The translations under genes were made by a program, and so were the position numbers. The notes beneath the pieces were generated by a model. That model did not search any database and was not told the DNA's origin. It saw nothing but the letters and a program-made list of their open reading frames with translations. A DNA stretch of 28,160 nt from Candidatus Peribacteria bacterium (GTDB lineage Bacteria; Patescibacteriota; Gracilibacteria; Peribacterales; Peribacteraceae), in NCBI GenBank assembly GCA_012515645.1, contig JAAYXY010000012.1, forward strand, positions 1 to 28,160. Reading direction: 5' to 3'. Positions 2,520 through 14,725 of this stretch are shown piece by piece; the first letter of the stretch is position 1; each line of letters starts with the position of its first letter.

Positions 2520-2551
2520 CCAGCCACGTCAGATTTATCTGACGTGGCTGG
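2520..2551. repeat. Perfect 15-bp inverted repeat overlapping tRNA-Gln 3' end
   Basis: ccagccacgtcagat-tt-atctgacgtggctgg. The right arm includes the tRNA CCA end. Confidence 0.95.
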
Positions 2552-2619
2552 GGAGGAGGGACTCGAACCCCCGAATGCCTGCTCCAGAGGCAGGTGCCTT
2601 ACCACTTGGCTACTCCCCA
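2545..2619 (-). tRNA. tRNA-Gln(CTG)
   Basis: TGGGGAG/CTCCCCA acceptor, D arm, CCTGC-CTCTGGA-GCAGG anticodon arm, GGTTCGAGTCC T arm, encoded CCA. 75 nt. Confidence 0.97.
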
Positions 2620-2720
2620 ACGATGAATGAACGAATGAACGGCTTATCGGTGTGCCATCTGCCACGTTAGCTTCAGCTGACCGTGGCTTGGCTACTCCCC
2701 AACGATGAATGAACGGCTTA
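2605..2720. repeat. Direct repeat of tRNA-Gln 5' end plus leader
   Basis: cttggctactccccaacgatgaatgaacg (29 bp) is identical at 2605-2633 and 2687-2715. Both copies end in ggctta; copy 1 carries an extra tandem gaatgaac. Confidence 0.95.
2661..2687. repeat. Imperfect third copy of the CCACGTCAGCT-NN-AGCTGACGTGG palindrome
   Basis: gccacgttagct-tc-agctgaccgtggc, located between the two direct-repeat copies. Confidence 0.85.
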
Positions 2721-2773
2721 CTGGTTCGCACCCATCATAGCAATAGGGAGCCGTGAGAGAAGGGGAAAGGCAT

Positions 2774-2806
2774 AAAAAAGCGCACCCGTATCCGGGTGCG
2801 CTTTTT
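2774..2806. terminator. Bidirectional rho-independent terminator
   Basis: A6-gcgcacccg-tatc-cgggtgcgc-T5, downstream of the minus-strand lipoprotein gene. Confidence 0.9.
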
Positions 2807-2855
2807 AAGACCGCACTGCGTGCGGATACAAGCCTGTTCATGGCTTGCCTGGTGC

Positions 2856-3314
2856 TTAGAAAAGATCCTCGATATCCATTTCAGCTTCAGCTTCTGCATC
2901 TGCCTCTGCTTCCGCATCAGCCTCCAGGTCTTCTTCTTCTTCTGCCACGTCTTCCTCGTCAGATACAGAGAAGACGTCGACAACTACTTCGCCGTCTGCA
3001 TTAACGTATGCCACCACATCCGCCGTGACGGCAATATGCCCGTCTTCGTACTCTACAACGGCAACATCGTCGTCGGTCCATCGGATTCCGGTGACGTAGA
3101 ACGTACCGCCGAGAACGGCGTCAATAGTGGAGAGATCACTGATATTCGCGGTAATATACGCTTCAATAAGATCTTTGTCGGTTTCCGTCAGGCGGTCATA
3201 CTGTTCCTCTTCCGCAGGTGGGGGCGGAGGGGGTGTGTCTTCCTGTTCGGCGGGTGGTTGCGAACAAGCGGGAAGCACAAGGAGGGTTGCCAAGAGGATA
3301 GAAAGTTTTCGCAT
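2856..3314 (-). CDS. Hypothetical lipoprotein with Pro-rich linker and acidic tail
   Basis: Start reassigned to MRKLSILLATLLVLPAC (signal peptide plus lipobox Cys). Core is LGGTFYVT...VEYEDGH; the C-terminus is D/E/A-rich. Confidence 0.8.
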   Translation of the reverse strand: MRKLSILLATLLVLPACSQPPAEQEDTPPPPPPAEEEQYDRLTETDKDLIEAYITANISDLSTIDAVLGGTFYVTGIRWTDDDVAVVEYEDGHIAVTADVVAYVNADGEVVVDVFSVSDEEDVAEEEEDLEADAEAEADAEAEAEMDIEDLF

Positions 3315-3410
3315 CGATGAAGAGGGGAAGAAAGTAGGGACACATGATAGTGGGATATATTTATTTTGTACAGGGTGCGCTCTCTGTCTGTGGACGGTAC
3401 ACTCCTCGCC

Positions 3411-5264
3411 GTGAACGGATACATGTATGCCATAGTGCCCAAGAGCATGGAGCGAAAATATCGCAAGCTCCATGAGTTGTTTTGCATCATGGGAGTGCGA
3501 TTCCATCAGCTGGCCATACCTATAGTTCTGTCTTTCACTGCTGCAATGTGTGCAGTCGCTGGGTTTGGGCTCCTTATTCCTTTGGCGCGCAGCCTGGCGG
3601 CAAGAGATATCAGTCAAATGCTAGATACCCCATTCTTGGGGAATGTGCTCACGATATTCGCACGATCACCAACAGAGGCCTTGAGTGAAACAGCACTACT
3701 CGTTATTGCCGCAGGTCTCTTTGTGGCGCTGCAATTATTACGTATTAGCCTAGAATATGCGTCTTTTGCATTTGCGCACTACTGGGGGGGGCGGTATGCC
3801 AGGAATATCACCTTGGCCATGCTGCGCAGGTACCTGCGATTCGGAAAGCTCTTCTTCGATCGTGAGAGCCAGGGGGAAATGCGCACGACCATTATGTACT
3901 CGCAGGAGGTGCTGCAGCTCCTCATATCACTAAGGACTCTGTTGAATGCGGGTCTGCAGCTATTGGCGCGTTTGTGTATCATGCTGGTCATTTCATGGAA
4001 GCTCACGCTGATTATGGCGTGCGCCTTTCCTCTGTTGTTCGTATGTATGCGCAGGATCGCAGTTGCGATGCGGCGCCTCTCTTTGCACTTCCGCCAGAAG
4101 CAGATGGAATTCGGGCGCAAATTGTTCAACGTGTTCAGTGCCATGACGCTCGTGAAAACCTATACCAGAGAACAGGCCATGCTCGAGCACTTTGGAGCAT
4201 TGCAGACAGAGATACGCAGTACGTGGTTCCGCATGCTTCTGTTGGAAGAAAGTACCAAGCCCATACAGGAGGTGATTATAGTGTGCTTCGTGACAGCGAT
4301 GCTGTTTGCGGGGACGTTTATGCAGCAAGCGGTGCTGGATGCGGAGCAAATCGCCGTACTGGTGGTATTTCTGTACGTTGTTATTGGGACCATGCCGCTC
4401 TATGCACAGATGGGGCGCATGTTCGGTCTGGCGGTGGAAACAACTGGTCCGGTGCTGCAGGTGCTCAGTGTGTTCAACGATGAAGAAAAATTTATTGTGC
4501 CGGAGGGGCAGGAAGAATTTGGTGGTCTGCGTAGCGGCATTGCGTTCCGTGATGTGTGGTTCTCGTATACCGAAGACGTGCCGGTGTTGCAGGGGGTGAC
4601 GTTTGACGTACCAAAGGGGAGCACGGTAGCTATCGTTGGTCCGAGTGGCAGCGGCAAGACGACATTGGTAAATTTGCTCTTGCGGTTATACGACTGCGCT
4701 CCATCGGCGATACAGCTGGATGGCAGGGATATTCGCACTCTGACGCACGCGTCGCTCCAGAAACACATTGCATACGTAACCCAAGAACCGCTGCTCTTCA
4801 ATGAGAGCCTGCGTGAAAACCTCCTATTTGGCATGGATAATCACCTGGAGGATGCTACGTTGCACAGCGTGCTGCAGCAAGCGCGTCTGGATGATTTGAT
4901 ATCACGTCTGCCGGCCGGTATGGAGACGGTAGTCGGGGATCGCGGCATCCAGCTTTCCGGTGGGGAGAAACAACGTCTCTCTATCGCGCGTGCGATTCTG
5001 AAGGATGCGGAGATCATCGTGCTCGACGAGGCCACAAGTTCCCTGGATTCCCAGACCGAACGGCGGATCCAGGAGGCGCTGGAGCTCATCTTGCAGGATA
5101 GGACGGCGATCATTATCGCGCATCGCCTCTCCACCATCCGCAATGCGGATAAGATCGTGGTCATACACGCGGGGCAGGTGGCGGAGGAGGGGACACTCAG
5201 TGCTTTACTGGCCGATGAAGATGGCATGTTCCATCGCCTGTGGAAGGCACAGCAGTTCTATTGA
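3411..5264 (+). CDS. ABC exporter, fused permease/ATPase (MsbA/HetA-like)
   Basis: N-terminal TM helices, Walker A GPSGSGKT, signature LSGGEKQR, Walker B IIVLDE, H-loop IAHRLS. Start is uncertain: GTG 3411 sits 7 nt after TACACT; ATG 3447 is an alternative. Confidence 0.9.
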   Translation: MNGYMYAIVPKSMERKYRKLHELFCIMGVRFHQLAIPIVLSFTAAMCAVAGFGLLIPLARSLAARDISQMLDTPFLGNVLTIFARSPTEALSETALLVIAAGLFVALQLLRISLEYASFAFAHYWGGRYARNITLAMLRRYLRFGKLFFDRESQGEMRTTIMYSQEVLQLLISLRTLLNAGLQLLARLCIMLVISWKLTLIMACAFPLLFVCMRRIAVAMRRLSLHFRQKQMEFGRKLFNVFSAMTLVKTYTREQAMLEHFGALQTEIRSTWFRMLLLEESTKPIQEVIIVCFVTAMLFAGTFMQQAVLDAEQIAVLVVFLYVVIGTMPLYAQMGRMFGLAVETTGPVLQVLSVFNDEEKFIVPEGQEEFGGLRSGIAFRDVWFSYTEDVPVLQGVTFDVPKGSTVAIVGPSGSGKTTLVNLLLRLYDCAPSAIQLDGRDIRTLTHASLQKHIAYVTQEPLLFNESLRENLLFGMDNHLEDATLHSVLQQARLDDLISRLPAGMETVVGDRGIQLSGGEKQRLSIARAILKDAEIIVLDEATSSLDSQTERRIQEALELILQDRTAIIIAHRLSTIRNADKIVVIHAGQVAEEGTLSALLADEDGMFHRLWKAQQFY

Positions 5265-14035: not shown

Positions 14036-14046
14036 AGCATACCTTT

Positions 14047-14496
14047 TTAATACTGCGCTTTCACATTGGCAATCCGTTCTTCCACTTTCTTGCGCAGGTC
14101 GGCATTGTTTTCCGCCAGGATGCGCACGGCTGCAAGCGCGGCGTTCTTGGGATGCAGGACTGTCATGAGTGGTACATCGGAAGGCATGCGCAGACTGGAG
14201 TGGATATCGACTGAGTACTCGTCGTAGCTGGTGATGGGGGGGCAGTTCACCACGGGGTGCACGCAGCTTGCAGCGGCTACACCGCCCAGACCGTTGCTCA
14301 TACCTACGACCGTGATGACCACCTGAGGCTCTGGATCGGCATTGAGCGTATTGATGATCTCGATGACTTTTTCCGGGACCTTATGCGCGGAAGCAACGAT
14401 GATATCGTTGGCAATGCCAAATTCGGCAAGTACGGCGGTGATTTTTTCCGCAAATTCCGTATCGCTCTTGGAACCGAGTAGCAGGGTGACGTGCAT
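14047..14496 (-). CDS. purE: AIR carboxylase PurE, class II-like
   Basis: LLGSKSD, VASAHK, VVGMSNGLGG, SSLRMPSDVP, NAALAA. Start is ATG 14496 or 14505. Confidence 0.9.
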   Translation of the reverse strand: MHVTLLLGSKSDTEFAEKITAVLAEFGIANDIIVASAHKVPEKVIEIINTLNADPEPQVVITVVGMSNGLGGVAAASCVHPVVNCPPITSYDEYSVDIHSSLRMPSDVPLMTVLHPKNAALAAVRILAENNADLRKKVEERIANVKAQY

Positions 14497-14527
14497 AGTG
14501 CCCATAGAATATCTATGTATGGAGAAG

Positions 14528-14557
14528 GCGGCAACCTCCATGTGTGGAGATTGCCGC
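14528..14557 (-). other. 13-bp hairpin immediately downstream of tRNA-like element
   Basis: On the minus strand gcggcaatctcca-caca-tggaggttgccgc (one G.U pair). The U-tract is weak, so this is a processing or attenuation hairpin rather than a clear terminator. Confidence 0.6.
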
Positions 14558-14562
14558 ATCAA

Positions 14563-14641
14563 GTGTAGTGGAGGGAGTTGAACCCCGATCTTCCCTCACG
14601 CGCGGCGAGGGACGCATTTCCCGACTATGCTATCCACCACA
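14563..14641 (-). ncRNA. tRNA-like RNA with non-canonical (9/3 or 8/4) cloverleaf
   Basis: TGTGGTGGA-TA-GCAT-AGTCGGGAA-ATGC-G-TCCCTCG-CCGCGCG-TGAGGGA-AGATCG-GGG-TTCAACT-CCC-TCCACTACA-C. The fold is clear; expression and function are not shown. Confidence 0.6.
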
Positions 14642-14699
14642 TGCGGGCATTGTGCTGGCGCATTGTTGCACGTCAAACATTTGTCGGAGTTGTTGGTGT

Positions 14700-14725
14700 A
14701 CCACGTCAGCTTTAGCTGACGTGGT
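14700..14725. repeat. Perfect 12-bp inverted repeat overlapping tRNA-Ala 3' end
   Basis: accacgtcagct-tt-agctgacgtggt. Same family as 2520-2551. Confidence 0.95.

Follow-up and report, generated by a model that had tools for sequence, protein, structure and literature searches.

What are the hairpins that begin exactly where tRNA genes end in the stretch of Candidatus Peribacteria bacterium DNA analysed here (28,160 nucleotides, contig JAAYXY010000012.1 of assembly GCA_012515645.1; hereafter the window)? Two of its tRNA genes, tRNA-Gln and tRNA-Ala, pass directly into a short palindrome, in which the initial annotation had seen either a mobile element that targets the tRNA CCA, resembling a repetitive extragenic palindrome (REP) or a miniature inverted-repeat transposable element (MITE), or a precursor hairpin that sequesters CCA and controls 3' maturation. 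Our results indicate that the hairpins probably represent a mobile DNA palindrome of very small size, present here as solo copies and native to this family of ultra-small bacteria. This reading is carried by the copies themselves, their palindromy, the duplication that flanks them, insertion polymorphisms, a bias toward tRNA genes and a nuclease gene that neighbours the palindrome in relatives.

The window has three tRNA genes, all encoded on the minus strand, and two of them are joined to the palindrome:

2545-2619, minus strand: tRNA-Gln(CTG), called by ARAGORN and by Rfam (tRNA model, 65.9 bits)
14722-14798, minus strand: tRNA-Ala(GGC), called by ARAGORN and Rfam
15050-15127, minus strand: tRNA-Arg(GCG), called by ARAGORN and Rfam
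2524-2547, without strand: palindrome copy 1, the 24-bp element CCA-CGTCAGAT-AA-ATCTGACG-TGG, core at 2527-2544, an exact pattern match
14701-14724, without strand: palindrome copy 2, CCA-CGTCAGCT-AA-AGCTGACG-TGG, core at 14704-14721, read from the sequence
2517-2523, minus strand: distal flank of copy 1, CTGG and then the displaced old CCA on the tRNA strand, recognised by comparison with the tRNA-Gln copies of genomes G193, G142, G143 and G171
14694-14700, minus strand: distal flank of copy 2, TACA and then the displaced old CCA on the tRNA strand, in keeping with the period-28 direct-repeat rule described below

On the minus strand the 3' end of tRNA-Gln, CCAGCCA, runs without a gap into CGTCAGAT-AA-ATCTGACG-TGGCTGG, and that of tRNA-Ala, ACCA, into CGTCAGCT-AA-AGCTGACG-TGGT, the CCA of each gene (plus-strand 2545-2547 and 14722-14724) being at the same time the proximal end of the palindrome. 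This bears out the annotated passage from CCA into CGTCAG-N6-CTGACG-TGG, as well as the compensatory change from A-T to C-G beside the palindrome centre. The distal arms also match each tRNA's own 3' end over the lengths first reported, 15 and 12 bp: copy 1 and its flanks form a perfect 15+15-bp palindrome (2520-2551, arms 2520-2534 and 2537-2551), and copy 2, together with A73 and its T partner, has perfect 12-bp arms (14700-14711 and 14714-14725). Behind neither copy did we find a T-run on the tRNA strand, as had been noted, and a plain intrinsic (rho-independent) terminator was ruled out because the hairpins lack a U-tract. A classical two-way intrinsic terminator, a 14-bp stem between A and T runs, is located at 2775-2806, which shows that U-tract terminators are in use in this organism. 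In two related strains the interval between the end of the GNAT gene and the tRNA-Gln palindrome is longer by 12 bp (TTTGGGAGTCCG), inserted behind position 2471.

The palindrome is repeated in the rest of the genome, an assembly of 754 kb in 123 contigs, 78% complete and with 37 tRNA genes. The organism is also present in landfill and bioreactor samples. The exact pattern CCA-CGTCAG-N6-CTGACG-TGG matched five times, compared with one match for the reversed control, and four of the 37 tRNAs, namely Gln(CTG), Ala(GGC), Ser(GCT) and Ser(GGA), carry it at offset 0 from their 3' end. At 86 bp downstream of the Ser(GGA) copy comes the fifth exact match, with the same downstream flank, and a sixth copy, with one mismatch, is found at 11630-11653 within pheS. 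Six copies thus lie within one mismatch of the 22-mer, four of them at offset 0, for which we roughly estimate a chance probability below 1e-15. Among the 72 perfect hairpins of the whole assembly with a stem of at least 9 bp, the palindrome family provides five of the longest thirty.

To define the anatomy of the element we used 82 distinct copies from this genome and its relatives. Of these, 45 are perfectly palindromic across 24 bp, 41 across 26 bp and only three across 28 bp. An exact 4-bp direct repeat surrounds the 24-mer in 35 of the 82 copies, and at least three of the four bases match in 54; when the right-hand window was shifted by 1-5 bp either way, only 0-7 exact matches were obtained, the seven at shift +1 being 5-bp duplications typical of tRNA-Ser. 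The exact duplications have the form CNNG in 34 of 35 cases and are TTCA in the remaining one. A 24-bp palindrome with a 4-bp duplication leaves a 28-bp footprint, and a direct repeat of period 28 is present in most copies; since the duplicated bases have complementary ends, the palindrome looks 26 bp long. The terminal inverted repeats and the fixed-length duplication of a MITE are both found here: the 24-mer amounts to two abutted 12-bp inverted repeats, and the target duplication measures 4 bp, or 5 bp at tRNA-Ser. As for a parent element, ordinary genes or a GIY-YIG gene lie between paired copies (DDE transposases were not searched for systematically), and the IS200-like fragments at contig ends carry other hairpins.

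These duplications would account for the link with tRNA genes. Sixteen of the 82 copies abut a tRNA CCA (Gln 6, Ser 5, Trp 4, Ala 1), which answers the annotation's call for a tally of tRNA association. At these sites the duplicated bases are nucleotides 70-73 of the tRNA (CCAG in Gln, CCTG in Trp, TCCA in Ala) or the 5-mer CTCCG in Ser, and a second CCA follows the right-hand duplicate. The simplest reading of these sequences is that insertion took place between nucleotide 73 and C74 and not after CCA, as first supposed; such a position explains the zero offset, the arm that matches the tRNA 3' end and the intact genes, the arm seeming to reach into each tRNA because the duplication has complementary ends. 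In this genome all four filled tRNAs have complementary ends at nucleotides 70-73 or 69-73, and four of the eight tRNAs with such ends are filled compared with none of the 28 others (one-sided Fisher p ~0.001, a test that is not fully independent, as the rule was partly derived from overlapping data). Behind copy 1 the distal flank reads CTGG, whereas relatives from four other genera have the direct duplicate CCAG-CCA; two inner bases of the duplicate are swapped here, so that each arm of the palindrome measures 15 instead of 13 bp. The tRNA-Ser copies of this genome are likewise lengthened by one pair. Judging by the same rule, the TACA behind copy 2 would be a decayed duplicate of the TCCA at nucleotides 70-73 of tRNA-Ala.

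How far the palindrome has spread was assessed in 200 genomes of the family, from 84 genera, by searching the 22-mer with one mismatch allowed. It was present in 30 genomes and 23 genera, with 1-18 copies in each (reversed control, 0-1 matches), and in none of 24 genomes from other families of the class. The 18 copies belong to G207 (~28 with a looser pattern), whose seven congeners have none. Copies of one genome have the same central hexamer, CTTAAG, ATTAAT, TCATGA or TCGCGA, and the arms show symmetric double changes. In genus g104 (nine genomes) tRNA-Gln(CTG) is identical in the eight with a readable trailer, and three also have the leader in common, but only G193 carries the palindrome there; homology between the congeners stops exactly at CCA. 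In genus g106 the intergenic DNA is too diverged for comparison with empty alleles. In G207 (loci L051-L069) the palindromes recur every 28 bp in arrays that also include different ones (CACGTCTCACATGTGAGACGTG among them); conserved ~25-bp blocks flank these arrays, which have the appearance of a larger composite repeat.

Insertion polymorphisms that involve the palindrome were found in the window within pheS and upstream of tRNA-Gln:

11630-11653, without strand: palindrome copy in pheS, one mismatch to the 24-mer, encoding part of ...GVTPRQLNPTW...
11633-11668, minus strand: 36-bp in-frame insertion in pheS, the 12 codons GDGVTPRQLNPT, just before the WQGFAFG motif, delimited with tblastn
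2661-2687, without strand: degenerate palindrome copy with a TTCA/TGAA centre, one bulge and mismatches, seen in the sequence; fold of -14.8 kcal/mol, z = -2.4
2627-2704, minus strand: module of ~78 bp, made up of a new leader, the degenerate palindrome and tRNA-Gln nucleotides 1-15 (2687-2701), delimited with contigs X9 and X13

The copy in pheS had been overlooked by the initial annotation. Its 12 residues are absent from all 29 relatives compared by tblastn of the C-terminal part of PheS, which run from GIDxxx straight to WQGFAFG, and the far-arm TGG is a pre-existing Trp codon. On the plus strand the insertion directly follows CCTGCCA, the last bases of this lineage's tRNA-Trp, and to its right the sequence is similar to the trailer of tRNA-Trp in G021. 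A near-identical strain (contig X17) has the insertion as well; the X13 contigs break on either side of the palindrome (11629 and 11696) and are uninformative. Further in-frame candidates were found in the C-terminal linker of ssb in the congeners G192 and G193 (L140, L145), where the copy is probably in frame, and in an open reading frame (ORF) of G067 (L117) for a surface-protein-like product, in which the palindrome encodes ATSDSSDAA. The comparison with empty alleles that had been suggested gave a mixed outcome: the empty state is plain for pheS, while no tRNA copy has a base-exact one.

The third, imperfect copy at 2661-2687 proved to be real, with two mismatches in a loose pattern, and is fused to a duplicated 5' fragment of tRNA-Gln. 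Contigs X9 and X13, from related strains in two metagenome runs and roughly 96% alike by our own estimate, join position 2626 to 2705 and skip the ~78-bp module altogether. The same junction, in which a tRNA 5' fragment ending in ...GCCAAG is followed by the palindrome, occurs at tRNA-Cys in G204 (L088) with an exact CAAG duplication; that genome has another copy at the 5' end of tRNA-Leu, with a CCAG duplication. On the other hand, the related GATGAAGCTACG core that had been reported upstream of tRNA-Arg does not belong to the family: the pattern does not match it, and its sequence is that of a duplicated 5' fragment of tRNA-Arg in reverse complement. An 87-bp module (15128-15214) does lie upstream of tRNA-Arg(GCG) and begins with a duplicate of tRNA nucleotides 1-12, in parallel to the tRNA-Gln module but without the CGTCAG palindrome; the related strain X9 lacks it and has six other bases instead.

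In relatives the palindrome is accompanied by a very small nuclease gene. Between the paired palindromes behind tRNA-Trp in G100 and G200 lies an ORF of 95-97 aa that consists of a GIY-YIG domain only; the order tRNA-Trp, palindrome, GIY-YIG is repeated in G021 and G175, and in G102 a palindrome with a tRNA-Trp-like left flank precedes the GIY-YIG ORF at the start of a contig. We sampled the clade of this nuclease at 20 loci in 20 genomes. Sixteen of these loci have a GCCACG...CGTGGC palindrome, perfect over 26 bp in 14, beside a ~95-aa ORF with PF01541 as its only domain; 15 of the 16 are located at a tRNA, 14 of the 16 palindromes begin exactly on the GCCA end of a tRNA for Asp, Ser or Trp, and the nuclease ORF follows 20-350 nt downstream on the same strand. 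The inner 14 bp of these palindromes come in several alleles. One well-supported nuclease subclade is associated only with alleles of the TCGCGA-type centre (a short protein and a weak tree), yet the nuclease tree as a whole is poorly resolved (95 aa, three starred branches) and the link between allele and clade is rough. Genomes with a close nuclease homologue (E ~1e-27 or better) carry the palindrome in 10 of 25 cases, compared with 20 of 175 for the others, although kinship among the genomes makes these counts non-independent. The relatives have several small GIY-YIG ORFs each (~5-15 per genome), and 11 of 20 sampled lay within ~250 bp of a tRNA. They had no match in NCBIfam; the best solved structure for the protein was that of the UPF0213 protein BH0048 (E = 0.006). 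The small nuclease gene that the annotation had proposed to look for is therefore present behind the palindrome in relatives but not in this genome, whose sole GIY-YIG gene is of another type than the clade:

C106:5220-5611, just upstream of tRNA-Leu(CAG): GIY-YIG gene of ~80-100 aa

This gene stands behind the longest perfect palindrome of the genome (18-bp arms, 5574-5611), the inner part of which recurs at C63:10578 and beside a GIY-YIG gene of G100. With only one GIY-YIG gene in the genome, and that of the other type, the copies of the window are solo copies.

The closest published analogue, which we take as a working model, is the Ssn family with its SRM repeats. These single-domain GIY-YIG nucleases of ~94 aa have genes flanked by hairpin repeats of 20-50 nt (SRM/NTS) that are also scattered in the genome; binding requires the hairpin to be single-stranded DNA, and cleavage takes place upstream of it, at a distance of a few bases. 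Variants of the repeat go together with variants of the nuclease, and CGTCA stands at the start of the NTS (Chenal et al. 2025, Nat Commun 16:2388, PMC11893778). The likeness extends to the ~95-aa PF01541-only ORF behind the palindrome at 16 of the 20 loci in relatives, although the copies of the present genome are solo, and to palindrome alleles that roughly follow the nuclease subclades. In contrast, a regular expression of the published SRM motif, with its oriented upstream box, matched none of the Gln, Ala or Ser copies on either strand and gave a single, unrelated match in the genome. The repeats described here are perfect, free of orientation, flanked by a 4-bp target duplication and tied precisely to tRNA 3' ends, whereas the main text of the Ssn paper does not mention tRNA and describes no target duplication (PMC11893778); there are about six copies per genome and not hundreds.

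From these observations we infer an integration chemistry, a role for the nuclease and an effect on RNA as follows. The mobile unit would be the 24-bp perfect palindrome CCA-CGTCAG-N6-CTGACG-TGG, which would integrate into a tetranucleotide whose ends are complementary (CNNG or, rarely, TNNA) and duplicate those 4 bp. In a tRNA gene with fitting nucleotides 70-73 it would land between nucleotide 73 and C74, its own CCA would become the CCA of the tRNA, so that the gene stays intact, and the duplicated 4 bp and the old CCA would end up behind the palindrome; later symmetrising changes would have lengthened the palindrome at tRNA-Gln of this genome. By analogy with the Ssn nucleases, the GIY-YIG protein would recognise the hairpin within single-stranded DNA and cleave next to it, and the 95-aa single-domain GIY-YIG nuclease is the likely partner. 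That palindrome and mini-nuclease together constitute a mobile system without transposase or integrase, in which a nick beside the extruded hairpin is followed by repair that pastes the 24 bp into CNNG, and which has specialised on tRNA ends as a safe harbour because the element's CCA rebuilds the gene, is an idea that we advance tentatively, as a possible rather than a probable account. The CCA-sequestering hairpin in the pre-tRNA trailer would most likely be a tolerated by-product.

Several results weigh against a mobile palindrome with a nuclease partner. A nuclease of the GIY-YIG clade was not found in this 78%-complete assembly, and the 20+ copies of G207 lie away from its GIY-YIG genes. 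No base-exact empty allele was found for any tRNA copy; because homology between congeners stops at CCA, insertion at tRNAs is deduced from the duplication and was not seen directly. The pheS insertion has 36 bp and not 28, lacks a clean duplication, and may have arisen by microhomology-mediated copying from a tRNA-Trp-type trailer instead of transposition. Moreover, many copies away from tRNAs have tRNA-Gln-like or tRNA-Trp-like flanks, so that duplication of tRNA ends may have contributed to the spread, and selection on an RNA or DNA function could be the reason why the same tRNAs have kept perfect palindromes in several genera.

The last of these points leads to the alternative that the hairpin is a selected pre-tRNA element which sequesters CCA and either steers or prevents 3' maturation or termination, for instance through an RNase III cut or an exonuclease stop, the other copies being incidental. 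The RNA hairpins are indeed very stable (-27.3 kcal/mol, z = -8.2 for copy 1; -20.1 kcal/mol, z = -5.9 for copy 2), and in the minimum-energy fold of the tRNA-Gln precursor the hairpin displaces the acceptor stem, whereas in that of tRNA-Ala it coexists with the cloverleaf. The arms change in a compensatory manner, and the same tRNAs (Gln, Ser, Trp) bear perfect palindromes in several genera. With no U-tract, and with tRNA-Gln convergent with the GNAT gene ~100 nt away, some stop signal is needed. Five of five near-complete relatives encode RNase III and none of the five a true RNase Z, which makes an endonucleolytic release conceivable; neither RNase Z, RNase III nor RNase II/R was found in the 78%-complete assembly of this genome. 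Even so, we judge such an element unlikely: the sequence is conserved, beyond the structure alone, 66 of the 82 copies do not abut a tRNA, in-frame copies occur in pheS and probably ssb, the palindrome is present at only 4 of the 37 tRNAs here and at one of nine congeneric tRNA-Gln genes, and the 4-bp flanking duplication has no explanation at the RNA level. RNA data for this organism were looked for without success; the contigs of the only RNA run carried tRNAs of other organisms and ended at the tRNA ends. The effect of the hairpins on RNA would most likely be a tolerated or secondarily used by-product.

Two kinds of DNA mobility other than the mobile palindrome proposed here were also weighed. 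A classical REP, or REPIN, mobilised by the RAYT transposase (Y1 HUH type) of the genome would agree with a short palindrome that shows compensatory changes, and a RAYT-like Y1 gene does lie beside metK (C85:3434-3835; 77.3 bits against the NCBIfam model REP_Tyr_transpos, cut-off 80), with homologues in 102 of the 200 family genomes and a weak enrichment in palindrome-bearing genomes (~70% compared with 48% of the rest). However, the RAYT genes are bracketed by different hairpins, GCCGCAC...GTGCGGC and CCGCAGGTC...GACCTGCGG, in the classical REP-RAYT-REP layout, both in this genome (G000) and at several of 20 loci in relatives, most clearly in G204, G142 and G192; upstream of the gene at hand stand hairpins of the form GCCGCACGT-6 nt-ACGTGCGGC, which recur on contig C31 (C31:6194-6223). 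The CGTCAG-type palindrome flanked none of the 20 RAYT loci of relatives, and among the positions listed for RAYT genes and palindromes no copy was within kilobases of a RAYT gene and the two had no neighbourhood in common. Y1 transposition of the IS200/IS605 type is not known to make a target duplication, whereas a 4-bp duplication was observed. We therefore rejected RAYT as the partner, given the other hairpins at its genes, and consider this explanation very improbable. The suggestion of a REP/MITE-like element biased to tRNA ends accordingly stands as regards insertion polymorphisms, target-site duplication, patchy spread and the share of copies at tRNA CCA, but neither its landing after CCA nor its RAYT/TnpA partner was supported. 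The core site of a tyrosine recombinase, att- or dif-like, with inverted arms around a 6-bp crossover and tRNA ends serving as landing pads for integrative elements, would share the layout of dif or lox cores, which consist of arm, 6 bp and arm. Pairs of palindromes do bracket 0.1-5 kb next to tRNAs, the second one with a tRNA 3' fragment, and congeneric synteny breaks exactly at the tRNA end. But the segments between paired palindromes contain a P-type ATPase, a PLP enzyme, an S-layer protein or the GIY-YIG gene and no integrase, site-specific recombination makes no 4-bp duplication around a single palindrome, and the central 6 bp are themselves palindromic and thus without polarity. Because paired copies enclose no integrase and each copy has its own duplication, such a core is very unlikely.

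The mobile palindrome was also compared with other short repeats. Rickettsia palindromic elements (RPE) measure ~100-150 bp, are tolerated in frame in essential protein genes and are found next to RNA genes; the in-frame copy in the essential gene pheS resembles them, whereas the unit here has only 24 bp, and to our knowledge RPE have no rule that regenerates a tRNA CCA. The cyanobacterial small dispersed repeats (SDR), which Elhai et al. reportedly described in 2008, are said to measure 21-27 nt, to show compensatory changes and to be thought among the smallest mobile elements. Size class and compensatory changes are thus alike, while lineage and sequences differ, and we know of no tRNA-end targeting or nuclease partner described for SDR. 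With REP, BIME and REPIN sequences the palindrome shares its short extragenic form, the compensatory changes, occasional arrays (G207) and RAYT genes in the lineage; it differs from them in that the RAYT genes of the lineage have other REPs of their own, and in its target duplication, tRNA bias and copies in coding genes. In mitochondria, GC-rich palindromes flank tRNA genes of Neurospora (Yin, Heckman and RajBhandary 1981, via PMC4478555) and mobile GC clusters occur in yeast (PMC4478555). Those are likewise conserved short palindromes beside tRNA genes, mobile in a compact genome and discussed as processing signals, but they are organellar, unrelated in sequence and not known to reconstitute CCA. 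Our literature search for bacterial tRNA-end palindromes of this kind found no description.

If these copies are mobile, a selfish element of 24 bp can maintain itself in a genome of ~1 Mb that has hardly any non-coding DNA, as it lands where its own sequence restores the interrupted gene, and a simple testable rule, insertion into CNNG before CCA, predicts which tRNA genes can be occupied. A tiny and widespread GIY-YIG nuclease family, whose biochemical activity was published only in 2025, is thereby linked to tRNA genes and possibly to the mobility of repeats. Should palindrome and nuclease indeed form one system, no smaller elements with a target duplication would be known, and the large family of Ssn-type nucleases, which has no assigned function, would gain a role in the dispersal of repeats. 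In practice, hairpins of this kind should not be annotated as terminators or riboregulators, and they mark break points of assemblies and synteny.

Other features were observed near tRNA genes and at the ends of contigs. Some tRNA trailers have starts in common (Tyr, Ile and Val; Glu and Leu; Gly and Pro), and a second family of trailer hairpins follows the CCA of two different tRNA-Arg genes after a few bases. Between the tRNA-Ala palindrome and purE a tRNA-like sequence (14563-14641, minus strand) was called neither by ARAGORN nor by Rfam at its gathering threshold. The trailer hairpin and the IS200-type fragments are located as follows:

15010-15045 of the window, minus strand, and contig C75 behind tRNA-Arg(CCT): hairpin GGAAACC-TAC-GGTTTCC, seen in the sequence
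C31:3-71, C87:15447-15515 and C107:3254-3325, at contig ends: identical C-terminal fragments of an IS200-type TnpA, beside the hairpin CCGCGCAGC-NN-GCTGCGCGG

The identity of the three fragments and their position at contig ends suggest a multi-copy insertion sequence that breaks the assembly.

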